Of a stretch of DNA of 64,000 bases, positions 5,005 through 16,692 are shown one piece after another. The notes below the pieces were generated by a model, which saw nothing but the letters and a program-made list of their open reading frames with translations, was not told the origin of the DNA and ran no database searches. This DNA is from Chloroflexota bacterium (GTDB lineage: Bacteria; Chloroflexota; Limnocylindria; Limnocylindrales; CSP1-4). The translations under genes were made by a program, and so were the position numbers. How positions within the stretch are numbered: position 1 is the stretch's first letter; every line of letters begins with the position of its first letter. The stretch is from positions 15,986 to 79,985 of the forward strand of contig JBJOLT010000018.1 of NCBI GenBank assembly GCA_046045415.1. Reading direction: 5' to 3'.

Positions 5005-6000
5005 ATGACGCAGAGCGCGTTCTGGGAGAGCCCGGTGATCGCCTCGACGATCCCGGTCGTGAAGGACTCGCGCTGGGTCCGGACGAACGCCGCCGCCGTC
5101 GACCGGGTCGCCGGCTGGATGGCCTACGAGGAGTTCGGCCTCCCGGACGGCGCCCAGATGTTCGACTTCGGGTCCGATCCGGACCTCCTCACCGACGTCA
5201 CGCTCTTCGTCAACTGCCTGAACTTCGCCTTCACCGACTTCGCCACGTCCCGCAAGTTCGAGCTCGAGTACCGCGGCCGGACCTGGTCCGACTCCGAGGC
5301 GATGGTCGCCGCGCTCCACCGTGCGCACGCCGCGGGCGAGCCGATCTTCACCGGCGCGTGGATGGCCGGCGTCACGAGGGCCGACCTCGAGCGGGTCTTC
5401 GCCGGTTCGATCGAGATGCCGATGCTCGACGAGCGGGTCGCGATCCTCCGCTCGGTCGGGGCGACGCTCGTCGACCGGTTCGACGGGAGCTTCCACGCCT
5501 GGGCCGCCGGCTGCGAGCCGGCGATGTACGCCGGCGGGAACGGGCTCCTGGAGCGGCTCGTCACGGACTTCCCGCGCTTCGAGGACTCGCACGTCTTCAA
5601 GGGGAGCCGCGTCCGGATCTACAAGCTCGCGCAGCTCGCGCTCTGGGGGCTCCACGCCATGTGGGTCCGCCAGGGGCGCGCCGGGATCCGCGACCTCGAC
5701 CGGATGTCCGCCTTCGCCGACTACATCGTCCCGGTCGCGCTCCGGGTGATGGGGATCTTCCAGTACGTCCCCGATCTGGAGCGGCGGATCATGGCCGGCG
5801 AGCCGATCGCGCGCGACAGCGAGGAGGAGATCGAGATCCGGGCCCACACGCTCTACGCGACGGCGCTCCTCACCGATGCCCTCAACGAGCTCCGCCCGCC
5901 GGAGCTCCGCCTCGTCATCCCGCAGGTCGACTACCGGCTCTGGAAGTCCTACCACGCGACGTTCCACCCGCATCACCTGACCGTCACGACGATGTACTGA
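5005..6000 (+). CDS. Queuosine-salvage protein, Qng1/DUF2419 family (queuosine / queuosine-5'-phosphate N-glycosylase-like)
   Basis: 331-aa product aligns block-by-block with eukaryotic QNG1 (C9orf64): LNFAFTDF, EYRGRTW, MPMLDERVAILRSVG..FDGSF, FKGSRVRIYKLAQL, AFADYIVPVALR, EEEIEIRAHTLYA. RBS GAGGAGA lies 5 nt upstream of the ATG at 5005. Divergent from rbsK. Confidence 0.8.
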   Translation: MTQSAFWESPVIASTIPVVKDSRWVRTNAAAVDRVAGWMAYEEFGLPDGAQMFDFGSDPDLLTDVTLFVNCLNFAFTDFATSRKFELEYRGRTWSDSEAMVAALHRAHAAGEPIFTGAWMAGVTRADLERVFAGSIEMPMLDERVAILRSVGATLVDRFDGSFHAWAAGCEPAMYAGGNGLLERLVTDFPRFEDSHVFKGSRVRIYKLAQLALWGLHAMWVRQGRAGIRDLDRMSAFADYIVPVALRVMGIFQYVPDLERRIMAGEPIARDSEEEIEIRAHTLYATALLTDALNELRPPELRLVIPQVDYRLWKSYHATFHPHHLTVTTMY

Positions 6001-6014
6001 GCGGGCGCCGACCC

Positions 6015-7223
6015 GTGGATCGTCCCCGCCTCGGCCCGTACCGGGAGCTCCTCGGCCACCCGGGGGCCCGGACGCTCGCGCTCTTCGGCCTCCTCGGGCG
6101 CGCCCCGATGGCGATGTTCCCCGTCGCGCTCGTCGCGGCGGCCGCGGGCGCGACGGGCGGCGGGGAGGGCTACGCGCTCGGCGGCGCGGCGGCCGGGGCG
6201 AGCGCCTTCGCCTCGGCGGTCGCCGCTCCGCCGATCGGCAGGCTCGTGGACCGGCACGGTCAGGGCGCCATCCCCCGGCTCCTCGCGCTCGTCTGCGCCG
6301 CCGCCGCGCTCGCGATCGTCGCCTCGCTCCTCGTCATCGGCGCGACCCCGCTCATCGTCCCGCTCGCGGCGATCGCCGGGGCGTCGCAGCCGGCGATCGG
6401 GACCCTCACCCGCGCCCGATGGATGGCGCTCCTCCACGGGACGCCGGCCGGCGACTCCGCCCAGGCGCTCGAGTCGATCAACGACGAGGTCTCGTTCCTC
6501 ATCGGGCCGTCGCTCGTCGCCATCCTCGCGACGGTCGGGTTCGTGGGCCTCCCGATCGTCGTCGGCTCGATCCTCCTCGTCTCGGGCGTCTTCGGGCTGA
6601 CGTCCCGCCGGAGCCTCCCGCCCCCGCCGCCCCACCCCCGCCTCGAGGGGGAGTCGCGCTGGCCCCCCTTCCCCGCGGGCCGCTCCGTCCTCCTCGCCAC
6701 CGGCCTCCTCGGGATCGCGCTCGGCTCGGTCCAGGTCGTCCAGCTCGCCTACTCCCGGTCGCTCGGCCTCGAGACGGGCGCCGCCCTCGTCTTCTTCGTC
6801 TACTCCGCGGCGAGCCTCACCGGTGCGATCGTCGTCGGGGCGATCTCGTGGCGGCAGCCGCCGCGCCGGCGGCTCGCCCTCTCGCTCCTCGTCTACGTCG
6901 CCGGCCTCCTCCCGAGCGCGCTCGTCTCCGGCTACCCCGCCTTCGTCGTCGCCTCGCTCCTCGCGGGCATCGCGATCGCGCCGACGTTCATCCAGGCGAA
7001 CGCGCTCGTCGCCGAGGCGACCCCCACCCGGTACCGGACCGGCGCGTTCGCGGTCCTCGGGTCGGCGACGATCCTCGGGATCGCCGCGGGGTCCGCGCTC
7101 ACCGGCGCCGCCGTCGACGCGCTCGGCGCGGATGCGGCGCGGTCGGTCCTCGTCCCGATGGCGGCGGCGGTCGGCCTCGCCGGCCTCCTCGTCGCCCGCT
7201 CCGGGGTCAGCCCGGGCGGCTGA
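6015..7223 (+). CDS. MFS transporter
   Basis: About 400 aa with 11-12 predicted TM helices, MFS-like charged loops, and a pre-TM1 YRELL...R.L motif. Start taken as GTG at 6015, 14 nt after the Qng1 stop; ATG at 6108 or 6114 are alternatives. The tracked ORF 3720..7223 is mostly spurious upstream. Confidence 0.72.
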   Translation: MDRPRLGPYRELLGHPGARTLALFGLLGRAPMAMFPVALVAAAAGATGGGEGYALGGAAAGASAFASAVAAPPIGRLVDRHGQGAIPRLLALVCAAAALAIVASLLVIGATPLIVPLAAIAGASQPAIGTLTRARWMALLHGTPAGDSAQALESINDEVSFLIGPSLVAILATVGFVGLPIVVGSILLVSGVFGLTSRRSLPPPPPHPRLEGESRWPPFPAGRSVLLATGLLGIALGSVQVVQLAYSRSLGLETGAALVFFVYSAASLTGAIVVGAISWRQPPRRRLALSLLVYVAGLLPSALVSGYPAFVVASLLAGIAIAPTFIQANALVAEATPTRYRTGAFAVLGSATILGIAAGSALTGAAVDALGADAARSVLVPMAAAVGLAGLLVARSGVSPGG

Positions 7224-8454
7224 GCGCGATGACGAGGTGCTCGTAGCCCCGGAACTGGAAGGTGGGGCGGCGGGCGGTCCCGGGGAGGACGTGGATCGCC
7301 TCCTCGGTCCTCGCGAGCTCGGTGAGCGTCGTCTCGAGCTCGAGCCGGGCGAGCGGGGCGCCGATGCAGAAGTGGATCCCGCCGCCGAGCGAGAGGTGGC
7401 TCGTGTCGGCGCGGGCGACGTCGAACCGGTCCGGGTCGGGGTGCTTGCGCGGATCCCGGTTCGCCGCGGCGAGGACGAGCGCGACCCGCCCGCCCTTCGG
7501 GATCTCCGTCCCGGCGATGACGACCCCGTCGTCGAGGACCCACCGCTCGAACCACTGGAGCGGCGGGTCCCAGCGGAGGACCTCCTCGATCGCGGCGCGC
7601 GGCGAGACGACGCCGTCCCGGACGAGCCGCCACTGGTCCGGGTGGGCGGCGAGCGCCGCGATCCCGTTCGACGAGGCGTTCACCGCCGCCTCGTGGCCGG
7701 CCATGAGGAGCACCATCGCGGTCGAGACGATCTGGTCGTCGGTGAGCCGCTCCCCGTCGACGGTCGCGCCGACGAGCGCGGTGAGGAGGTCGTCGCCCGG
7801 CCGGCGCCGCCGGTCGGCGACGAGCTCGAGGAGGTAGCGGCGGAAGTCGCCGGCGGCCCGGTTCGCCGTCGCCTGCTGCTCCTCGCTCGGCCCGGGCTCG
7901 TACATGCTGATCGTGTCGTCCGAGAGGCGGAGGATCGTCCAGCGGTCGCTCTCGGGGACGCCGATCAGGTCGCAGATGATCCCGAGCGAGTAGGCCTGCG
8001 CGTACGAGCCGACGAGGTCGATCGAGCCGGCCTCACGCCCCTCGTCGAGGAGGCGGACCGCCCGGTCGCGGATCGACGACCGGAGCCCCTCGACCGCCCG
8101 GGGCGTGAACGCCTCGGTCACGAGCCGGCGGAGCTTCGTGTGCTCCGGCGGCTCGAGGTTGAGGAGCTCCCACCGCTCGAACGCGTGGTAGTCGGTCCAG
8201 CGCGGGTCGCGCCACGTCGGGATCCCCGGCGAGACGCCGAGCTCCTCGGGCGTGTAGCGGTGGAGGAACGTCGTCCCGAGCCGGCGGTCGCGGAAGGCCG
8301 CGTGGACGTCCTCGTAGCGGGTCAGGTACCAGAGGTGGTCGCCCTCCGGGTGCCAGACCGGCGTCGTCTCCCGGACCCGGGCGTACGCGGGGTACGGGTC
8401 GGCGACGAAGCCGGGGTCGGCCGGGTCGAACGCAAGATCCGGCCGGACGGTCAC
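7207..8454 (-). CDS. Cytochrome P450
   Basis: 415 aa with heme-binding FxxGxHxCxG (LGGGIHFCIGAPLARLE), the EVLRWDPP (ExxR/PERF region) and the AGHEAAV I-helix. GTG start at 8454 overlaps the stop of upstream udp (GTGA). Confidence 0.9.
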   Translation of the reverse strand: MTVRPDLAFDPADPGFVADPYPAYARVRETTPVWHPEGDHLWYLTRYEDVHAAFRDRRLGTTFLHRYTPEELGVSPGIPTWRDPRWTDYHAFERWELLNLEPPEHTKLRRLVTEAFTPRAVEGLRSSIRDRAVRLLDEGREAGSIDLVGSYAQAYSLGIICDLIGVPESDRWTILRLSDDTISMYEPGPSEEQQATANRAAGDFRRYLLELVADRRRRPGDDLLTALVGATVDGERLTDDQIVSTAMVLLMAGHEAAVNASSNGIAALAAHPDQWRLVRDGVVSPRAAIEEVLRWDPPLQWFERWVLDDGVVIAGTEIPKGGRVALVLAAANRDPRKHPDPDRFDVARADTSHLSLGGGIHFCIGAPLARLELETTLTELARTEEAIHVLPGTARRPTFQFRGYEHLVIALSRPG

Positions 8455-9260
8455 CGCGCGGGAGCCGCGGCTGGGCCTCCGGTCGCCCGGTCGCGGGCGA
8501 TGAGGACCCGGAGCCCCTCGACCGCGGCGTCGATCACCGGGTCGATCGAGAAGTCCTTCATCGAGGCCTCCGCCTCCTCCCGGGTCATGTCCGGCGCGCC
8601 GGCGCAGACCATGATCCCGCCGGCGCGGACGCGCGCGATCGCGGCGACGATGAAGATCGCGGCCGCCTCCATCTCGGAGCTGACCGCGCCGCCCCGCACC
8701 CACGCCTTCCAGCGCGCCGCGAGCTCGTCGGCGATCGGCATCCGCTCCGGCTCCACCTCGCCGTAGAAGGAGTCCTTCGACTGGCTGACCCCGAGCCGCG
8801 CGAGGGCGCCGGTCCGGCGCGCCGCCTCGCGGAGCGCGTCGACGACGTCGATGTCCGCGAGCGCCGGGTACTCCATCGGGAGGTAGTGGCTCGTCGTCCC
8901 TTCGTCGCGGATCGCCGCCGTGATGATCGCCAGCTCGCCGGTCCGCATCCCCGGCTGCATCCCGCCGGACGTGCCGACGCGGATGAACGTGTCGGCTCCG
9001 CAGCGGATCAGCTCCTCGACCGCGATCGCCGCCGACGGGCAGCCGATCCCGGTGGAGGTGCACGAGACCGCCACCCCGTCGAGCTCGCCCGTCCACGTCA
9101 CGTACTCGCGGTTCCTCGCCACGAAGCGCGGGTTGTCGAAGCGCGACGCGATCCGCTCGACGCGCCCCGGGTCCCCGGGGAGGAGGACGTACCGGCCCAC
9201 GTCGCCCGGGCGGAGCGCGACGTGGTGCTGCGGCTCGCCCGTGGGCGCGGCCCAGGTCAT
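8451..9260 (-). CDS. udp: Uridine phosphorylase-like nucleoside phosphorylase (PNP/UDP family 1)
   Basis: Strong similarity to E. coli Udp: LPGDPGRVERIA, STGIGCPSAAIAVEEL, GVSQSKDSFYG, SEMEAAA. 269 aa. Confidence 0.8.
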   Translation of the reverse strand: MTWAAPTGEPQHHVALRPGDVGRYVLLPGDPGRVERIASRFDNPRFVARNREYVTWTGELDGVAVSCTSTGIGCPSAAIAVEELIRCGADTFIRVGTSGGMQPGMRTGELAIITAAIRDEGTTSHYLPMEYPALADIDVVDALREAARRTGALARLGVSQSKDSFYGEVEPERMPIADELAARWKAWVRGGAVSSEMEAAAIFIVAAIARVRAGGIMVCAGAPDMTREEAEASMKDFSIDPVIDAAVEGLRVLIARDRATGGPAAAPAR

Positions 9261-9273
9261 GCGGGCGCCGCTC

Positions 9274-10065
9274 TCAGGAGCCGAGCCGGCCGCTCGCGCG
9301 GTCGTTGCGGATGAGGACGCGGAGACCGGCGATCGCCGCGTCGATGACGCGCTCGACGTCGCCGAGCGCCTGCTCCTCGGGGGTCGGCGGCAGGTGGTCG
9401 AGGTTCTGGAAGAGGAGCATCACGCCACCCGCGCGGACGCGGAGCGTCGACGCGACGATGAAGAGCGCCGATGCCTCCATCTCCGAGGCGACCGCGCCGC
9501 CGGCCATCCACGCCTTCCACCGCTCGGCGAGCGCGTCGGCGACCGGCATCCGCTCCGGCTCGTGCTGGCCGTAGAACGAGTCCTTCGACTGCGCGACCCC
9601 CACGTGGACGCCGTAGCCCGTCGAGCGCGCGCCCTCCCGGAGGGCGAGCGTCACGTCGAGGTCCGCGACCGCGGGGAACTCGATCGGGAGGTAGTGGCGG
9701 CTCGTCCCCTCGTCGCGGATCCCGCCGGTCACGACCGCGATGTCGCCCGTCCGGATCCCCCGCTGGAGGGCGCCCGCGGTCCCGACGCGGATGAACGTGT
9801 CGACGCCGATCGCGGCCAGCTCCTCGACGGCGATCGCGGTCGACGGGCAGCCGATCCCGGTCGAGGTGCAGGAGACCGGGACGCCGTCGAGGCTCCCGGT
9901 CCACGTCACGTACTCGCGCTTCTCGGCGACGAAGCGCGGGTTCTCGAAGCGCCGCGCGATCCGCTCGACCCGGCCGGGGTCGCCCGGCAGGAGGACGTAT
10001 CGCCCGACGTCGCCCGGCCGGAGCGCGATGTGGTGCTGGCTGCCGTCGGGCTCGGTGAGGGACAT
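9274..10065 (-). CDS. udp: Uridine phosphorylase-like nucleoside phosphorylase, tandem paralogue
   Basis: 263 aa with the same motif set (LPGDPGRVERIA, STGIGCPSTAIAVEEL, GVAQSKDSFYG, SEMEASA). 13-nt gap to the downstream paralogue. Confidence 0.8.
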   Translation of the reverse strand: MSLTEPDGSQHHIALRPGDVGRYVLLPGDPGRVERIARRFENPRFVAEKREYVTWTGSLDGVPVSCTSTGIGCPSTAIAVEELAAIGVDTFIRVGTAGALQRGIRTGDIAVVTGGIRDEGTSRHYLPIEFPAVADLDVTLALREGARSTGYGVHVGVAQSKDSFYGQHEPERMPVADALAERWKAWMAGGAVASEMEASALFIVASTLRVRAGGVMLLFQNLDHLPPTPEEQALGDVERVIDAAIAGLRVLIRNDRASGRLGS

Positions 10066-10081
10066 CGCGGGTCGCCCTTTC

Positions 10082-10975
10082 TCAGACCGAGGCCATCGCC
10101 CGGATCGCGACGACGAAGACCCCGACGAAGACGACGAAGCCGACGAGGAAGATCGCGATCGCGACCTGCTCCGGGAAGACGAGGAAGGCGGAGGGATCGC
10201 GCCCCCAGTTGAAGATGCCGTAGACGAAGAGCGTCGTCATCGTCACGACCCCGATGATCCCGACGGCGACGTCGAGCGGGCCGCTCGGGACCCGCCGATA
10301 GGAGGTCTTCTGGCCGACCGACCCGAAGGCGCGCGCCTCGAGGCTGATCGCGAGCTGCTGGACGCGCTCGACGGCCCCGGCGGCGACCGGGACGAACGAC
10401 GGGATGATCGCGCCGAAGCCGGTCCCCTTCATCCCCCGCGAGCGCTGCGCCGCGATGACGAGCCCGACCTCGCGCTGGAGGACGGGGATGAGCTGGAGCG
10501 TCATCGCGATCATGAAGTTCGCGAGGTACGGGACCTTCATCCGGTGGAGCGATGCGAAGAGGTCCGACGGGTGGGTCGTCAGGAGGAGGGCGAAGCCGAT
10601 CACCTGGAAGGCGGTGACGCGGAGCAGGAGCGAGATCGCGTGCGAGAGCCCCTCGTTGTAGATGTTCAGCGGCCCGAGCTGGACCGGCGGGGTGCAGACG
10701 CCGCCGCAGATCGCCGGCGCGACACCCTGGATGACGATGATCGAGGCGTTCACCGGGATGAAGACGAGCATGATCCTCGCGAGCGGCTTCGCGATCCGCG
10801 CGCTCACGGCGACGACGATCCCGAAGAGGAGCGACATGAGGAGCGGGAGCGCCTCGTACGTCGTGAAGCAGAAGAAGGCGAACGGGATGACCCAGGCGAA
10901 CTTCGCGACCGGGTCGAGGCGATGGAGCCAGGACGACCCGCGGACGTGGGTGATCGAAAGCGTGCCGGTGTTCAT
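10082..10975 (-). CDS. ecfT: ECF transporter transmembrane (T) component, EcfT/CbiQ family
   Basis: 297-aa multi-TM protein with the conserved CbiQ-family A-R-G motif region (QRSRGMKGTGFGAI). ATG at 10975 overlaps the upstream ATPase stop (ATGA). Confidence 0.85.
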   Translation of the reverse strand: MNTGTLSITHVRGSSWLHRLDPVAKFAWVIPFAFFCFTTYEALPLLMSLLFGIVVAVSARIAKPLARIMLVFIPVNASIIVIQGVAPAICGGVCTPPVQLGPLNIYNEGLSHAISLLLRVTAFQVIGFALLLTTHPSDLFASLHRMKVPYLANFMIAMTLQLIPVLQREVGLVIAAQRSRGMKGTGFGAIIPSFVPVAAGAVERVQQLAISLEARAFGSVGQKTSYRRVPSGPLDVAVGIIGVVTMTTLFVYGIFNWGRDPSAFLVFPEQVAIAIFLVGFVVFVGVFVVAIRAMASV

Positions 10976-11802
10976 CGGGCGCTCCCCTTCCCGAGCTCGT
11001 CCGCGAGCTCCGCGACGCTGAGGGCCGCCGGCTTCCCCTTCCGGGAGGCGAGGCGGATCGAGATCTGGGTGACCTGCGGCGGGGTGAGGTGCGCGACCTT
11101 CATCACCTCGTCGTTCGCGAAGACCTCGCGGGCGGTCCCGTCGGCGAGGATCCCGGCATTCCACATGACGACGAGCCGGTCGGTGACGTCCGCGAGGAGC
11201 GGCATGTCGTGCGCGACGCAGACGATCGTCGCCCCGCGGTCGCGGAGCTTGTGGATCAGCCGGTTGATGACGGTCGTCGTCTGGTGGTCCTGCCCCGTCG
11301 TCGGCTCGTCGAGGATGAAGACCTTCGGGTGCATCGTGTAGATCGAGGCGATCCCGACGAGCTTGCGGAGCGGGAAGCTGAGCCGGTAGGGGTGGTCGGT
11401 CCGGTACTGCTTCAGGTCGAAGAACTCGAAGGCCTCCTCGACGCGGGCCTCGATCTCCTCCTTCGGGAGCCGGAGGTTCGTCGGGCCGAAGGCGAGCTCC
11501 GCCTGGACCGTCGTCGCGAAGAGCTGGTGGTTCGGGTTCTGGAAGACGTAGCCGATGCTCGACGCGAGCTGCTGGACGCTCAGCTTCGTCGCATCCTTCC
11601 CGTCCACCGTCACGGACCCCGAGGAGGGGCGGAGGAGGCCGTTGAGGAGCTTCGTCAGCGTCGTCTTCCCCGAGCCGTTCGGCCCGGCGATCCCGAGGGA
11701 CTGGCCCTCCGGGATGTCGATGCTCACGCTGTCGAGCGCGACGACGTTCCCGCGCGGGTAGACGTAGCGCGCGTCCTTGACGCTGATGATCGGGGCGCTC
11801 AT
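10972..11802 (-). CDS. ecfA: ECF transporter ATP-binding protein
   Basis: Walker A GPNGSGKTT, signature/Walker B (ILDEPTTGQD), and an EcfA-type C-terminus. ATG at 11802 overlaps the upstream ATPase stop (ATGA). Confidence 0.85.
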   Translation of the reverse strand: MSAPIISVKDARYVYPRGNVVALDSVSIDIPEGQSLGIAGPNGSGKTTLTKLLNGLLRPSSGSVTVDGKDATKLSVQQLASSIGYVFQNPNHQLFATTVQAELAFGPTNLRLPKEEIEARVEEAFEFFDLKQYRTDHPYRLSFPLRKLVGIASIYTMHPKVFILDEPTTGQDHQTTTVINRLIHKLRDRGATIVCVAHDMPLLADVTDRLVVMWNAGILADGTAREVFANDEVMKVAHLTPPQVTQISIRLASRKGKPAALSVAELADELGKGSAR

Positions 11803-12644
11803 CGGCGGGCCTCCAGCCACGTCACGGCCTCGTCCGTCGTCACCGGGAGGTTATTCGACCCCGGTCCCGCGAGCCGGAGCGCCAGCTCGGTCGCCTGCGG
11901 CGAGCGGAGGCCGATCGCGGTGAGCTCGTCGCCGCGCGAGAAGACCTCGGTCGGAGTGCCGACCATGACGATCCGGCCCTCGTGCAGGACGACGATCCGG
12001 TTCGCGAAGGTCGCGAGGACCTCGCTCTCGTGCTCGGCGACGATGACGGTCATCCCCTCGTCGCGGTTCAGCTTCCGCGCGAGCTCGAAGACCTCCTCCT
12101 TCCCGGTCGGGTCGAGGTTCGAGGTCGGCTCGTCCATGAAGAGGATCCTCGGCGACATGACGAGGACGGACGCGATCGCGAGCCGCTGCTGCTGGCCGCC
12201 CGAGAGGCCCATCGGGGAGCGCTCCTCGAAGCCGGCGAGGCCGACCTGCGCGAGCGCGTCGCTCACCCGGGGGATCATCTCCTCGGTCGGGACGCCGAGG
12301 TTCTCGAGCCCGAGAGCGACCTCCTCGGCCGCGCTCACCTGGCTCATCTGGAACTCCGGGTTGTCGAAGACGATCCCGACCCGCTTCGCCATCTCCCGGA
12401 CGGGGGTCGTCGCCGCGTCGAGCCCCTCGACCGTGACCTTCCCCTCGTAGAAGCCCATCGTCGACTGGGGGACGATCCCGTTGAGGCAGAGCCCGAGGGT
12501 CGTCTTGCCGGCGCCGTTGAGACCCATGATCCCGATGTATTCGCCGCGCTCGATCTCGAGGTTCACGTCGGTCAGCGCGGCCCGGCCGCCGGTCGCGTAC
12601 GTGAAGGTCAGCCCCTCGATCGAGATGACACGCTCACCAGGCAC
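11799..12644 (-). CDS. ecfA: ECF transporter ATP-binding protein (second ATPase)
   Basis: Walker A GLNGAGKTT, LSGGQQQRLAIA signature, Walker B LFMDEPTSNLD. GTG start at 12644 with GGAG 6 nt upstream. Confidence 0.85.
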   Translation of the reverse strand: MPGERVISIEGLTFTYATGGRAALTDVNLEIERGEYIGIMGLNGAGKTTLGLCLNGIVPQSTMGFYEGKVTVEGLDAATTPVREMAKRVGIVFDNPEFQMSQVSAAEEVALGLENLGVPTEEMIPRVSDALAQVGLAGFEERSPMGLSGGQQQRLAIASVLVMSPRILFMDEPTSNLDPTGKEEVFELARKLNRDEGMTVIVAEHESEVLATFANRIVVLHEGRIVMVGTPTEVFSRGDELTAIGLRSPQATELALRLAGPGSNNLPVTTDEAVTWLEARR

Positions 12645-12774
12645 GTGTGCTCCAACTCGTGACGCCTGCCGGGCGTCGGGGCCGTCCCCAGGGGGACGGG
12701 CCGAGAACGATACCGCCCGGCCGCGTCGTCCGACGCGACCGGGCGGTCGATTCGCTTGTCCGTGAAGCGAGCTG

Positions 12775-12993
12775 CTAGAGCTCCTTGAGCCGAAGGACCG
12801 CGATCCCCGCGAGGACCGTGAAGAGTCCGCCGAGGACGTTCATCGCCCAGAGGGTGATGTACGCGTTGTCGGGCTCGACGATGTTCACGATCGCGTTCGG
12901 GAGGAAGATCGTGAAGATCCCCATCGCGATGACGCCGACCGCGACCTGCTCCTTCGGACCGACGGTCGCGCCGCCGTTGCCGTTGCCTGCCAT
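12775..12993 (-). CDS. Small (72 aa) two-TM membrane protein of unknown function within the ECF operon
   Basis: ATG at 12993 preceded by GAGGAGAGG at 6 nt. Two hydrophobic helices. Lies 25 nt after the S-component stop and 130 nt before the ATPase. No family recognised. Confidence 0.45.
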   Translation of the reverse strand: MAGNGNGGATVGPKEQVAVGVIAMGIFTIFLPNAIVNIVEPDNAYITLWAMNVLGGLFTVLAGIAVLRLKEL

Positions 12994-13018
12994 TGGTGCC
13001 TCTCCTCAGTCTTCGGGA

Positions 13019-13714
13019 CTAGCTGCTGAGCGCCGGCGTGACGACGAAGACGCTGAGCAGGACGAGGATCACGCCGAGGACGACGCCCCCGACGATGAGC
13101 ATCAGGTTCTGCTGCCCCTCGGACTTCGGGAGCTCGATCCCGGCGGTGAGGCCGGGCGGGAGCGCGCGGAGGATCGCGAGGCCGACGAACGTGGCGATCA
13201 TCTTGTCCGCGATCGAGCCGGTGATGCCGGCGAGGAGCGAGGACGCGATGAGGCTGTTCCCCGCGGCGGCGAAGGCCGCGACGAGGGCGTCGGACGAGTG
13301 GCCGGTGGCGCCGCCGAAGACGAAGACGACGATCGGCGAGGCCATCAGCTGCACGAGGATCCCGCAGATGATGCCGAGGATGACGAGACGGGTCGCCGAG
13401 CGGCCCATCCCGAAGCTCCGGATGCCGTAGCCCCAGACGAGGGCGCCGACGACGTTGCAGAGCGCGAACGGGATCATCGTCGGGCTGATGACGAACGACG
13501 CCGCGGTGTTCGTGATGATGCCCGTGAGGGCGCCCCACCACGGGCCGAGGGCGACGGAGGCCACCATCGTCCCGATCATGTCGAGGAAGATCGGCAGCTT
13601 GAGCGTGCTGTTGATCCACCCGCCGACGATGTTCAGCGCGCCCATCGCGGGCACGAGAACCGCTACGTAGGCGACGGGTACCCGCGCCGCCTTCCCCATA
13701 CTGGCCGCCGTCAT
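13019..13714 (-). CDS. ECF transporter substrate-specific (S) component, specificity unknown
   Basis: 231-aa, 6-7 TM protein as the first gene of a dedicated S-A-A'-T module. ATG at 13714 with GGAGGAGGA about 8 nt upstream. Trimmed from ORF 13019..14077. Cannot be assigned to a named S-component family by eye. Confidence 0.6.
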   Translation of the reverse strand: MTAASMGKAARVPVAYVAVLVPAMGALNIVGGWINSTLKLPIFLDMIGTMVASVALGPWWGALTGIITNTAASFVISPTMIPFALCNVVGALVWGYGIRSFGMGRSATRLVILGIICGILVQLMASPIVVFVFGGATGHSSDALVAAFAAAGNSLIASSLLAGITGSIADKMIATFVGLAILRALPPGLTAGIELPKSEGQQNLMLIVGGVVLGVILVLLSVFVVTPALSS

Positions 13715-14069
13715 GGCTCTGGCTTCCTCCTCCACGACGGGTTCCGAGCCCCCGGTGGGCTCGTCTGCCCGTCCCCGGCGCCGACAGTGGCGCCATTCCA
13801 TTCCCGGGAGCGCGTCCGGCGGGTTCCCTCGACCCGTCGGGCCCTGGACAGGTCCGGGCCTCGCTCCCAGCGACACTCGCGTGCCGATGCGGGGAAGATA
13901 GCCCCGCGCGTCAAGTCCCCGGGACGGACGGTCGGCGATCCGCCCTCGCGGCGGTCCTGCCGGGGGCGCGGACCGGCGCCGGCCCCGACGGTACGGGGCG
14001 GACCGGTACCTTCGTGGGAGGTCGGACCCCTTGGTCCGCCACGGTGGGCTCTGGTAGATTCCCGGTCGC
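13715..14069 (-). promoter_or_regulatory. 355-nt GC-rich structured 5' leader / promoter region of the ECF-udp-P450 operon (riboswitch candidate, class unresolved)
   Basis: Long untranslated leader with several perfect hairpins (ggcgcc-actgtc-ggcgcc; gagccc-accgg-gggctc immediately upstream of the RBS). It has short blocks resembling TPP (GCUGGGA...GGACCUGUCC...CGAGGGAA) and cobalamin (GGGAA...CGCCACUGU) riboswitch cores, but neither consensus is complete. Confidence 0.3.
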
Positions 14070-14144
14070 GCCGACATAGCTCAGCGGTAGAGCAGCTGTT
14101 TCGTAAACAGCAGGTCCTCGGTTCAAATCCGAGTGTCGGCTCCA
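14070..14144 (+). tRNA. tRNA-Thr(CGT): tRNA-Thr (anticodon CGT)
   Basis: Cloverleaf: acceptor gccgaca/tgtcggc, D-arm gctc-agcggta-gagc, anticodon loop ttCGTaa, T-arm ctcgg-ttcaaat-ccgag, encoded CCA. TAGATT -10-like hexamer 11 nt upstream. Confidence 0.9.
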
Positions 14145-15976
14145 TCCGACCGATCAACGGACCCCGGCCCAGTGCCGGGGTTCGTCGTTCCCGCCGACCG
14201 CCCGCGGACGACGAGCCGGCGGAAACCCGTCGGGATCTCGACCCCGTCGACGAGGTGCCGATCGGCGACGAGCGCGTCGCGCCCCGCGCCCGGATCGAGC
14301 TCCAGGCCGGCGGGGGCCGCCTCGAGGAGTGCGTCGAGCATGGCGCGTCCCTCGAGGCGCGCGAGCGTCGCGCCGAGGCAGGCGTGGGCCCCGATGCCGA
14401 ACGCGAGATGGCCGCGCGGGTTCGGCCGGTCGAGGCGGATCTCCGCCGGCGCCGGGAACGCCGTCGCGTCGTGGTTCGCGGAGGGGAAGTCGAGCGCGAC
14501 ATGCGGCGCGATCGCCACGGGACGCCCGTCCGGTCCGCGGTCGATCCGTTCCATGACGAGGTCGGAGGTGAGGCGGAGGACCTCCTCGACGAAGCGGTCG
14601 CGCGCGTCGATCATCCCCTCCGAGGTGCCGCGGTCGCCCGTCGCGACGAGGAGCGGGACGAGGTCGGGCCGGGCGACGAGGCCCCAGCCGAGCCCTGCGA
14701 CGAGCCCGACGACCGTGTCCCGCCCGGCGGCGAGGAGGAGGCTGAGGATCCCGGTGAGCGTCTCCCGGTCGAGCGGCGCGCCGCCGACGGGCGTTGCCGC
14801 GAGCGCGCCGAGGACGCGCCCGGCATCGCCTCGCGCGCCCCGGTCGAGGAGCTCGTCGAGGAACGCGTGGAACGGGACTCCGTCCCGGCGCCCCTCGTGG
14901 TCCCCCCAGACCGAGAGGCCGAACGAGCGGAGGCGCGGCGCGTCGGCCTCGAGGTCGAGGACCCGGGCGATCGAGCCGACGACGAACGGGAGCGCGACCC
15001 CCTCGACGAGCTCGACCGAGTCGCCGGCCGCGAGCGGGCGGAGGAGCGTCGCGGCGTCGGCGCGGATCGCCTCGCGGTGCGGTTCGAGCGCGCCGCGCGA
15101 GAGGAACGGGACGAGCGCGCCGCGGAGCCCCGTGTGCTCGGGCGGATCGGACTCGAGCGGGAGCTGGCGGTACGTGCGGACGTCCTCGTCGCCGCGGTGG
15201 GCGGACGACCAGCGGCCCCAGTCGCGGCCCGCCGCCTTCACCGCGTCGTGACCCGCGACGCGCGGCAGGGCACGGACGCGGGCGGGTCCCACCGGCGCAT
15301 CGAGGCTGCCGGTGTAGCCCGCCCTGATCTCCCCGAAGCGGACTCGCCAGGGTCGTCCGCCGCGCCGGACCCGGCGGACGTGCTCCAGGACCTCCTCGCG
15401 CATCGCCCGCCAGTAGAGCGCCGCGACGAGCGCCGCCACGAGCGCCGCGAGGGCGTCGCCGCGAAGGGCGAGCGCCGGGACGAGCAGGAGCGTCCAGCTG
15501 TCGTACGTGACGAGCCGGTCCGCGACGACGAGCCCGACGAGCGCGGCCACGAGCAGGGCCGCCGCGAGTGCGAGCGGATCGACCACGAGGAAGGTCCCGA
15601 GGATCGGCGAGACGCCGTAGCCGCCCCGGAGGCCGTGCCAGATCGGGAAGACATGCCCGACGACCGCCGCGCCTCCCGCGAGGACCCCGGCCCCCGACCC
15701 GGGGAGGAGCGACTCGAAGGCGAGCGTCGGCAGCGCCGCCTTCGCGACGTCGAGGAGTGCGACGACGACCCCCCACCGCGTCCCGAGGAGGAGCCGGGCG
15801 TTCGTCGCCGACGCCCCGCCCGAGGGGACCGCCTCCCCGCCCGACCCGAACCGGATCGTCACCCTCCGCAGGTCGACGGCCGGGGCGACGAGCCGGCCGA
15901 CGACGACCGCGGCGGAGATCGATCCGGCGAGATAGCCGACGGCGAGCGCGCCGCCGAGGAGCAGGGGGTCGCTCAT
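14123..15976 (-). CDS. PlsY-like (DUF205/G3P acyltransferase family) membrane domain fused to a cytochrome P450 domain
   Basis: Single 617-aa ORF from the internal ATG at 15976. The N-terminal ~200 aa carry degenerate PlsY motifs (SGGASATNA; LLDVAKAALP; GHVFPIWHGLRGGYGVS). The C-terminal ~390 aa carry the P450 ExxR/PxRW region and heme loop FGIGAHACLGATLARLE. No stop separates the two domains. The 3' end overlaps tRNA-Thr by 22 nt on the opposite strand. Confidence 0.7.
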   Translation of the reverse strand: MSDPLLLGGALAVGYLAGSISAAVVVGRLVAPAVDLRRVTIRFGSGGEAVPSGGASATNARLLLGTRWGVVVALLDVAKAALPTLAFESLLPGSGAGVLAGGAAVVGHVFPIWHGLRGGYGVSPILGTFLVVDPLALAAALLVAALVGLVVADRLVTYDSWTLLLVPALALRGDALAALVAALVAALYWRAMREEVLEHVRRVRRGGRPWRVRFGEIRAGYTGSLDAPVGPARVRALPRVAGHDAVKAAGRDWGRWSSAHRGDEDVRTYRQLPLESDPPEHTGLRGALVPFLSRGALEPHREAIRADAATLLRPLAAGDSVELVEGVALPFVVGSIARVLDLEADAPRLRSFGLSVWGDHEGRRDGVPFHAFLDELLDRGARGDAGRVLGALAATPVGGAPLDRETLTGILSLLLAAGRDTVVGLVAGLGWGLVARPDLVPLLVATGDRGTSEGMIDARDRFVEEVLRLTSDLVMERIDRGPDGRPVAIAPHVALDFPSANHDATAFPAPAEIRLDRPNPRGHLAFGIGAHACLGATLARLEGRAMLDALLEAAPAGLELDPGAGRDALVADRHLVDGVEIPTGFRRLVVRGRSAGTTNPGTGPGSVDRSDGADTRI

Positions 15977-16692
15977 CCTCGACCCGCGTCGCCCGCGCTC
16001 GGGTCCTCGGCGGGCGGGCGGCCGCCCATGACGAAGGTGATCTCCGCGATCCGGCCGCGCCGGTCCTTCCGTGTCGCCCGCCGATGGGCGAGGTGGCGAC
16101 GGAGCTTCGGCAGCTCGGCCCACCAGAAGACGACGTTCGCGACGACCGCCATCGCGAGGAGCGCGGGCTCACCCCGCCAGAGCGCCCACGGGATGAGGAG
16201 GAGCGGCCAGACGTCGAACGCGACGAAGGCATCGGCGACGACGAGGCCGAGGCCGAGCCCGGCGCTCGGGAGCGCGACCGTGGCGAGGGGATCGAGGACG
16301 ACGAGCCCGCCGAGGAGCGGCGAGACGCCGTAGCCGCCCCGGAAGCGGTGCCAGATCGGGAGGACGTGACCGACGACCGCGCCCGTCGCGCAGGCGGCCG
16401 CGGCGATCCCGGTCGGGTCGGCGAGCCGGAAGGCGAGCGTCGGGACGAGCGCCTTCGCGATCTCGAGCGCCGCGGTGGCGCACCCGGCGCGAGGACCGGC
16501 ACGCTCGCGGATCGCCGACGGGCCGACCCGTTCGAGGGTCATCGTCGCCCCGGCGTCGTCGACGAGATAGGTCGTCGTCTCGACGTCGCGACCCGGGAGG
16601 AACCGTCGCGCGACGAGCCGGGCGAAGGAGACCGACCCGGCGAGGTAGCCGACGAGGGCGGCGGCGACGAGGAGCGGCGCCGGGACGTCCAC
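15973..16692 (-). CDS. PlsY-like (DUF205) membrane protein, divergent paralogue
   Basis: About 239 aa with LEIAKALVPTLAF and GHVLPIWHRFRGGYGVSPLLG motifs. Motif 1 is degenerate (DDAGATMT). Its stop overlaps the ATG of the PlsY-P450 fusion (ATGA). GTG start at 16692 is uncertain; the remainder of tracked ORF 15973..17169 is Arg-rich junk. Confidence 0.6.
   Translation of the reverse strand: MDVPAPLLVAAALVGYLAGSVSFARLVARRFLPGRDVETTTYLVDDAGATMTLERVGPSAIRERAGPRAGCATAALEIAKALVPTLAFRLADPTGIAAAACATGAVVGHVLPIWHRFRGGYGVSPLLGGLVVLDPLATVALPSAGLGLGLVVADAFVAFDVWPLLLIPWALWRGEPALLAMAVVANVVFWWAELPKLRRHLAHRRATRKDRRGRIAEITFVMGGRPPAEDPSAGDAGRG

Follow-up and report, generated by a model that had tools for sequence, protein, structure and literature searches.

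The question raised by this locus is whether the GC-rich region in front of an ECF transporter operon is an RNA that senses a ligand. The window (the whole 64-kb stretch of DNA that was analyzed) comes from a Chloroflexota lineage akin to Ca. Limnocylindrus and Aquidulcis. Within it, positions 13715 to 14069 make up the entire gap between the ATG of an ECF S-component gene (13714, minus strand) and a tRNA-Thr(CGU) gene (14070 to 14144, plus strand), and GC content reaches 0.77 in this gap. The initial annotation took all 355 nt as a structured 5′ UTR of the S-component gene and saw in it partial TPP and cobalamin riboswitch blocks. Our analysis identifies the leader as a lineage-specific structured 5′ UTR, which is a known kind of element, and not as a TPP or cobalamin riboswitch. 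The parts of the gap that lie outside the leader, with the operon promoter, are as follows.

14070 to 14144, plus strand: tRNA-Thr, anticodon CGU, the divergent neighbor (ARAGORN; Rfam tRNA model, 72.6 bits)
14031 to 14060, plus strand: putative tRNA-Thr promoter, TTGGTC-N18-TAGATT (read from the sequence; in a block 97% identical to the related locus L032)
13917 to 13986, no strand: GC-rich, poorly conserved spacer between the two promoters (60 to 65% identity to L032)
13895 to 13914, minus strand: promoter-like elements of the ECF operon, TTGACG (13914-13909) and TATCTT (13900-13895), recognized by identity to L032 and by the layout of orthologs

Comparison with L032, a locus with the same divergent tRNA-Thr and an S protein 80% identical to that of the window, revealed that the gap is not conserved uniformly. 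Identity was 97% over 14106-13987 (tRNA gene and promoter with the DNA upstream), 60 to 65% over 13986-13909, and 93 to 97% over 13908-13629, a block that includes the first ~85 coding nucleotides. Because the last block continues ~85 nt inside the coding sequence, its high identity may reflect recombination rather than selection on the leader. In the alignment, CTTGACG (13915-13909) is common to L032 and the window and is followed by an 8-nt spacer and TATCTT. The resulting spacing, TTGACG-N8-TATCTT, is noncanonical, and a consensus scan of the gap for promoters and terminators returned neither. The leaders of other orthologous operons, which we sorted into types A to E, offer a comparison: a canonical TTGACA-N16-TAACCT/TAGGGT is found in types A and B, and a TAnnnT box lies ~6 to 8 nt ahead of a homologous 5′ hairpin in types A, B, C1, and C2. 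From this spacing, and from the resumption of L032 identity at CTTGACG/TATCTT, we infer that transcription of the ECF operon starts near 13888, which would give a 5′ UTR of ~175 nt. These comparisons indicate that only the ~175 to 200 nt adjoining the S gene would be leader or promoter, so that the proposed 355-nt 5′ UTR is probably about half as long as first thought and its distal part consists of the poorly conserved spacer and the tRNA promoter. The proposed tRNA promoter on the opposite strand is plausible: TAGATT (14055-14060) lies 9 nt ahead of tRNA-Thr and, with TTGGTC, falls within the block that is 97% conserved with L032; a strict scan for consensus promoters passed it over.

A coding reading of the leader, based either on in-frame upstream ATGs (MEWRHC...) or on an antisense 62-aa ORF (13713-13901), was rejected. 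L032 carries a 1-nt deletion at 13800 and an A-to-G change at 13796, and both upstream in-frame ATGs are thereby gone; the N-terminal extension is not conserved, and we conclude that the leader is not coding.

The elements of the leader, in the 5′-to-3′ direction of the transcript, are listed here.

13871 to 13886, minus strand: P1, a 5′-terminal hairpin CGGCAC-GCGA-GUGUCG, followed by CUGGGAG (pairing probability, 0.84 to 0.99)
13804 to 13870, minus strand: long-range helix of CUGGGAGCG (13870-13862) with CGCUCCCGG (13812-13804), present in the minimum free energy (MFE) structure (pairing probability, 0.93 to 1.0)
13803-13795, minus strand: linker GAAUGGAAU
13777 to 13794, minus strand: P2, a perfect 6-bp hairpin, GGCGCC-ACUGUC-GGCGCC
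13736 to 13773, minus strand: P3, a two-tier stem-loop with outer GACGGG/CCCGUC and inner CGAGCCC-ACCGG-GGGCUCG (covariance model R2, RNAalifold)
13725 to 13733, minus strand: Shine-Dalgarno sequence GGAGGAGGA (read from the sequence)
13714, minus strand: start codon AUG

All of the leader helices were predicted with pairing probabilities of 0.7 to 1.0. In P1, both of the L032 substitutions preserve pairing on the minus strand only (C-G to U-G and G-U to G-C), and a hairpin homologous to P1, followed by YUGG, occurs downstream of the −10-like box in other leader types. The long-range helix encloses an irregular hairpin (13857-13816) that holds the TPP-like blocks. This helix is invariant across the three available sequences, so no covariation signal is possible either way, and the part that it encloses is absent from the sister E-type leader. 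The two hairpins singled out by the initial annotation both exist: the first is P2 (13794-13777), and the second, GAGCCC-ACCGG-GGGCUC just 5′ of the ribosome binding site (RBS), is the inner tier of P3 (13762-13746; 7 bp at 13763-13745), in which one G-C pair is A-U in L032. The 3′ end of P3 (13736) is separated from the Shine-Dalgarno sequence by the 2-nt GU dinucleotide, and the Shine-Dalgarno sequence itself has a predicted mean unpaired probability of 0.71 when the transcript start is taken as 13888.

Folding energy does not distinguish this region from chance. The MFE of the 355 nt was −193.5 kcal/mol, compared to −189.4 ± 6.4 kcal/mol for shuffled sequences (z = −0.65), and the halves behaved similarly (proximal z, −0.95; distal z, −0.34). 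The gap contains five distinct perfect hairpins of at least 6 bp (six hits, two of them overlapping); dinucleotide shuffles contained 2.1 ± 1.8 hits, and the gap's count was reached by 5% of shuffles and by 9% of the 355-nt windows taken elsewhere on the contig. Over the whole gap, perfect hairpins are thus only marginally in excess of chance. The substitutions in L032 separate the hairpins by position. The distal perfect hairpins (14038-14022 and 13999-13981) are broken, with pairs lost, whereas all seven variable columns within the proximal helices keep or gain pairing, among them a G-C pair exchanged for A-U and several G-U changes that pair only as minus-strand RNA. With three sequences this test has no statistical power alone, and 157 of 500 shuffles equaled it.

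Stronger evidence came from the E-type leader, which belongs to loci (L030 and L031) whose S protein is 94% identical to that of the window and whose leader sequence has nevertheless diverged. A covariance model (R2) of P2-P3 and the Shine-Dalgarno sequence, built from the window and L032 only, matched the E-type leader at the expected position, immediately ahead of the Shine-Dalgarno sequence there (22.2 bits; E, ~8e−4; 283 kb searched). In the resulting alignment, 7 of the 19 P2-P3 pairs are changed on both sides, six of them in P3, and 98% of cells pair. The P2-P3 covariation score was reached by none of 500 shuffles, and controls with slid partners gave 0 to 2 double-changed pairs. In an independent run with MAFFT and RNAalifold, P3 was recovered with five compensatory pairs. 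P2 reads GGUCCC-ACCA-GGGGCC in the E-type leader; in the alignment guided by the model, this counts as a compensatory change at one pair and a wobble change at another. The placement of R2 on the E type, the double-sided changes, and the RNAalifold recovery show, as far as so tiny a comparison (three D-type sequences that differ from one another and a single E-type sequence) allows, that the nearest lineages preserve the RNA structure of P2 and P3 even as sequences and loops change. This bears out the initial view of a structured, GC-rich leader on the S gene, both of its named hairpins being kept via compensatory changes in related lineages. Loops and junctions differ between the D and E types (ACUGUC versus ACCA, ACCGG versus AGAUC, and CAGA versus UGAA), which weakens an aptamer reading, since loops and internal loops of P2-P3 that formed a ligand pocket should have been kept. 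More generally, a riboswitch is poorly matched by unpaired P2-P3 positions that vary, by the lack of a terminator, and by a Shine-Dalgarno sequence predicted to be mostly unpaired, although the sample is small and this is a weak test.

We then considered the riboswitch-like blocks. All of them are literally present, the TPP-like ones as GCUGGGA (13871-13865), GGACCUGUCC (13855-13846), and CGAGGGAA (13831-13824) and the cobalamin-like ones as GGGAA (13805-13801) and CGCCACUGU (13792-13784). Rfam 15 was searched at three scales (64 kb at the gathering threshold; 801 nt and 201 nt at an E value of ≤10), and at all three the tRNA was the sole real match; no TPP, cobalamin, preQ1-I, -II, or -III, or other riboswitch was found in the leader. 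On the leader strand, everything else stayed below 15 bits. The weak matches were treated as noise: RT-13 (17 bits, opposite strand), SNORA7, mgtE, and Actinomyces-1 (14.4 bits; E, 5; many noncanonical pairs). T-box and attenuator ideas were dropped as well, there being no Rfam match and no U-tract.

In the cobalamin riboswitch consensus, the B12 box is expected 3′ of GCCACUG. AGGGAA and GCCACUG both occur in the window leader, but its sole B12-box-like string, GGACCUGUCC, lies 5′ of GCCACUG. Moreover, GCCACUG is here part of the P2 arm and loop and is CCCACCA in the E type. With the order wrong, GCCACUG not conserved, and no RF00174 match, a cobalamin riboswitch was rejected, even though the blocks themselves are real.

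The TPP resemblance is rarer and less trivial than expected. The leader precedes an ECF S-component gene as its 5′ UTR and presents the order hairpin, CUG(A/G)GA, ACCUG, hairpin, AGGGAA; its order and spacing (hairpin, GCUGGGA, 11 nt, ACCUG, hairpin, CGAGGGAA) resemble those of E. coli thiM. We wrote a simplified descriptor (hairpin, CUGAGA allowing a single mismatch, ACCUG, hairpin, AGGGA), which E. coli thiM and Arabidopsis thiC satisfy. In 1.1 Mb of real sequence the descriptor matched D-type leaders only, and it matched 1 of 20,000 shuffles; these frequencies are biased because the descriptor was written after the sequence had been seen. A degenerate or variant TPP (thi-box) aptamer is further favored by L032 substitutions that preserve the P3-like and P5-like hairpins. 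Relative to the TPP P4/P5 arm (ACCUGAUC...GCGNAGGGA), the window has ACCUG, a hairpin, and CGAGGGAA in order, with J5/4 2 nt shorter and no UAAU-type loop. Nevertheless, there was no RF00059 match in either the 801-nt or the 201-nt search, and the descriptor fails once a P2 helix of at least 4 contiguous pairs is required, the candidate CCCCGC/GCGAGG having a C-A mismatch. The near-invariant CUGAGA of TPP is CUGGGA in the window and UUGGGA, CUGGGU, or CUGAAG in sister leaders. ACCUG...AGGGAA, within a stretch of ~60 nt, is absent from the E-type leader despite the 94% identical S protein. Whichever of the two inferred transcription starts applies, the transcript would begin downstream of the 5′ strands of a TPP P1 and P2. 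CD3073 and FolT, rather than ThiT or YkoE, are the families closest to the S component, and the operon has nucleoside phosphorylases and no thiamine genes. We therefore regard a TPP variant as highly improbable: the quoted blocks exist, but they are neither recognized as RF00059 nor conserved in sister leaders. The CUGGGA variants of sister leaders and the lack of ACCUG...AGGGAA in the E type indicate instead that the TPP-like pattern arises from an ancestral "hairpin plus CUGGGA" module beside a lineage-specific insertion.

The genes of the operon, with one nearby gene of interest, are as follows.

13019 to 13714, minus strand: ECF S-component, which opens the operon (231 aa; product 100% identical to database protein P0001)
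12993-12775, minus strand: conserved membrane ORF, 72 aa, also present in related loci
12644-11799 and 11820-10972, minus strand: two ABC ATPases (Pfam, NCBIfam)
11164-10082, minus strand: EcfT/CbiQ, ORF as listed (Pfam, NCBIfam)
10065-9274 and 9260-8451, minus strand: two uridine-phosphorylase-like genes (Pfam, NCBIfam)
5005-6000: Qng1/DUF2419 "queuosine salvage" gene

Downstream of the S gene, the remainder of the operon spans 8451 to 12993, and gene order is the same in related loci. The true start of EcfT is probably downstream of 11164, since the listed ORF overlaps the second ABC ATPase. The S component scored 113 bits against the NCBIfam CD3073-family model, below the cutoff of 180, and weakly against Pfam ECF_trnsprt; its closest solved relative is FolT (E, 0.01). 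A literature search on CD3073 found nothing relevant. The two uridine-phosphorylase-like genes and Qng1/DUF2419, which in types A and B is directly divergent from the S gene, make a role in nucleoside or queuosine salvage the context to which the genes point.

This context is one argument for a new riboswitch, or ligand-responsive RNA, that would control translation of the ECF operon in response to a nucleoside or queuosine-related compound, with P1 plus CUGGGAG, the long-range helix, and CGCUCCC as switching parts. There is a precedent in Clostridioides difficile, where a preQ1-I riboswitch lies upstream of queK-qrtT-queL, which includes a queuosine-salvage ECF S-component (PMC11477304); furthermore, QrtT-type S components cluster with Qng1, and transporters for the queuosine salvage pathway are still being sought (PMC11130926). 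The C. difficile system resembles the window in that a cis leader precedes an ECF S-component gene and the context is queuosine salvage. It differs in that the window leader is GC-rich, matches none of preQ1-I, -II, and -III, and has no A-rich tail or H-type pseudoknot, and in that the window S component is only a sub-threshold CD3073 relative. A 5′ hairpin followed by YUGG is common to most leader types, and CUGGGAG, CUCCC, and GGAGG could form an anti-anti-SD/anti-SD/SD triad; the anti-SD-to-SD duplex is, however, weak (−6.8 kcal/mol). Taken with the lack of conserved unpaired nucleotides between the D and E types, leaders that differ over most of their length between orthologs with 94% identical S proteins, covariance models that do not transfer between leader types, no terminator, and an MFE no better than that of shuffles, this leaves a new riboswitch in the window very unlikely.

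The broader set of orthologs points the same way. Leaders at ~100 orthologous loci fall into at least five sequence types, and blastn of the window leader against 29 orthologous loci gave no match upstream of the orthologs. In type A (Limnocylindrus/Aquidulcis), the leader is 105 nt long with three hairpins and has covariation of its own (26 pairs, 8 changed on both sides, 97% paired). A model built from type A (R1) found type B at ~50 bits; against the window leader it gave no match with default filters and, with filters off, at best 2.9 bits on generic hairpins. One R1 match at 16511-16610 (16.5 bits; E, 0.03) lies off the leader and was treated as probable noise. Type A leaders had no match in Rfam, preQ1 classes included. 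Conversely, a model of the D and E types (R3) detected none of the A, B, and C leaders, and types C1 to C3 differ again. The contigs retrieved for P0004 and P0006 added nothing but copies of types B and C1. The A/B leaders resemble that of the window in belonging to the same orthologous operon, in their order (a −10 box, a 5′-terminal hairpin plus UGG, and two hairpins that end before the Shine-Dalgarno sequence), and in the covariation support for their hairpins; they differ in that R1 and R3 do not cross-match and that the window leader is ~70 nt longer. The leader types share a layout and nothing more: a −10-like box, a hairpin at the 5′ end with YUGG after it, and hairpins that end just before the Shine-Dalgarno sequence. 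The initial annotation proposed to judge its claim by an Rfam hit and by leader conservation: there is no such hit, the leader is not conserved at most orthologous loci, and only the two Shine-Dalgarno-proximal hairpins are kept, in only the nearest lineages. It is conceivable, but very improbable, that a single undescribed riboswitch or RNA regulator underlies the Limnocylindria leaders, each of them a rapidly evolving version of it; it would sense queuosine, queuine, or another salvaged nucleoside, with the ~175-nt leader of the window as an expanded member and CUGGGAG, CGCUCCC, and GGAGG as the switch of that member.

With moderate confidence, we favor the view that the gap is an ordinary divergent intergenic region in three parts whose lineage-specific structured 5′ UTR is generic rather than ligand binding. 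The tRNA side (~14069-13987) would hold the tRNA promoter and conserved upstream DNA, the middle (~13986-13917) would be a fast-evolving GC-rich spacer, and the transporter side would hold a promoter (~13914-13895) and the 5′ UTR of ~175 nt (~13888-13715). The UTR is predicted to fold into P1, the long-range helix closing an irregular hairpin, P2, and P3, with an exposed Shine-Dalgarno sequence 2 nt on. P1 might protect or cap the 5′ end, and P2 and P3 might lock up G/C-rich upstream sequence such that the RBS stays single-stranded and is translated at a fixed level. The E. coli ompA mRNA has stabilizing 5′-terminal hairpins. The window leader is like such ompA-type stem-loops in having a hairpin at the extreme 5′ end and stable stem-loops upstream of an exposed RBS, with structure kept without sequence; by this analogy, its stem-loops would act in stability or translation, as generic leader architecture and not as a ligand-binding aptamer. 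A riboswitch is unlikely, given how rapidly the leader turns over between close relatives and given that no unpaired positions are conserved. Regulation of the operon, if there is any, would more likely act at the promoter or via a protein, by analogy with the Anaerolineae orthologs, in which a GntR/UTRA (GntR/HutC-type) regulator is encoded divergently and the promoter bears a perfect palindrome, TAGACGTATATATACGTCTA, as a putative operator. If the transcript started upstream of 13907, CUAUCUUCCCC could pair with the Shine-Dalgarno region (−13.7 kcal/mol), and a switch would then be possible. We rejected CUAUCUUCCCC as an anti-Shine-Dalgarno element, since it needs that upstream transcription start and has no counterpart in the E type.

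Two further readings were weighed against this generic 5′ UTR. Formally, the gap could contain promoters only, its hairpins being functionless by-products of 77% GC. The whole-region z score of −0.65, a hairpin count reached by 5 to 9% of controls, and the lack of leader sequence conservation across most orthologs all fit this reading; however, it does not account for the seven P2-P3 pairs changed on both sides between the D and E types (0 to 2 in slid-partner controls) or for proximal hairpins surviving the L032 substitutions when distal ones do not, and we consider it rather unlikely. Alternatively, P1 or P2-P3 could be binding sites for a regulatory protein, either an RNA-binding repressor or one that recognizes a DNA operator, that controls the operon. 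Types A, B, and C have the same 5′ hairpin stem sequence, ACGGC/GCCGU, with variable loops, and the Anaerolineae orthologs have protein-based control. On the other hand, no regulator gene adjoins the operon among the ORFs scanned in the annotated part of the window, and a DNA operator at P1 was rejected on two grounds: the half-sites lie anywhere from 3 to 13 nt apart, and G-U pairs make the hairpins strand specific. A protein-binding site is thus quite unlikely.

The result is a routine one in that it removes a TPP- or cobalamin-like riboswitch lead and trims the "355-nt leader" to ~175 nt. It also documents lineage-specific, covariation-supported stem-loops directly upstream of the RBS in one uncultured freshwater Chloroflexota lineage, where they front an uncharacterized ECF transporter whose Qng1/DUF2419 and uridine-phosphorylase-like neighbors suggest salvage of queuosine or another nucleoside. 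If any such leader did respond to a ligand, it would represent a new riboswitch class for a micronutrient. The leader of the window is a founding member of the D/E-type leaders, in which P2 and a two-tier P3 with compensatory changes end 2 to 3 nt before the Shine-Dalgarno sequence.

In Ca. Limnocylindrus/Aquidulcis, a canonical promoter (TTGACA-N16-TAACCT) is followed by a 105-nt leader of types A/B, two of the sequence classes of leaders at orthologous loci, and then by the ortholog of the ECF S-component gene (the S gene). Three hairpins in this leader show covariation, with both-side changes in 8 pairs; the linkers UUUGGUUGUAAA and GAAACAG are conserved, as is a GUU loop. A search of the leader against Rfam gave no match, and it is therefore a candidate undescribed cis-regulatory RNA. 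This and two other leader regions are located as follows.

L004:3860-3970, L006:3860-3970, L003:3884-3985 and about 30 more loci: 105-nt type A/B leader of Ca. Limnocylindrus/Aquidulcis
L018-L027 and L062-L083 (e.g., L021:3752-4001): operon orthologs in Anaerolineae
13889-13907 of the window, minus strand: perfect hairpin GCGGGG-CUAUCUU-CCCCGC, overlapping the inferred -10 box

The Anaerolineae orthologs have an AT-rich leader containing GGAGGTG, a perfect palindrome (TAGACGTATATATACGTCTA) that covers the -10 region, and a divergent gene for a GntR/UTRA (HutC-type) regulator. At the type C3 loci (L099-L101) the leader is just ~60 nt long, and the upstream neighbor is co-directional with the S gene; by eye, the end of that neighbor resembles a methylmalonyl-CoA mutase C terminus. 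The window's own hairpin contains CUAUCUUCCCC, whose complementarity to the Shine-Dalgarno region (-13.7 kcal/mol) would matter only if transcription started further upstream.

Compared with L032, a relative with the same leader type, the window (12184-14106) shows a mosaic of identity along the S gene, in which stretches at 93 to 97% alternate with stretches at 68 to 80%. The L030 lineage has a different leader even though its S protein is 94% identical to that of the window. Taken together, these sequence comparisons suggest recombination within and around the S-gene locus.

Features of the operon and its surroundings in the window are as follows.

12775-12993, minus strand: 72-aa ORF that follows the S gene and precedes the first ABC ATPase gene
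8451-10065, minus strand: tandem pair of uridine-phosphorylase-like genes (283 and 271 bits against TIGR01718)
~7207-8400, minus strand: second P450 domain (Pfam)
5005-6000, plus strand: Qng1/DUF2419 queuosine-salvage gene, about 2.5 kb beyond the operon end
14150-14185, plus strand: GC-rich hairpin ACCCCGGC-CCAGU-GCCGGGGU after tRNA-Thr, with no clear U-tract

The 72-aa ORF is conserved at >60 loci, Anaerolineae among them, with identities of 35 to 89%. It had no match in Pfam or NCBIfam and appears by eye to have two hydrophobic segments; its product is perhaps an accessory subunit of this ECF system that has so far gone undescribed. The uridine-phosphorylase-like pair forms the last genes of the operon, the Qng1/DUF2419 gene lies nearby, and a DUF2419 gene is the divergent neighbor of the S gene in types A/B, which together suggest a queuosine or nucleoside salvage cluster. 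A convergent ORF has its 3' end facing the hairpin after tRNA-Thr; this ORF looks cytochrome P450-like by eye and is without a family match.
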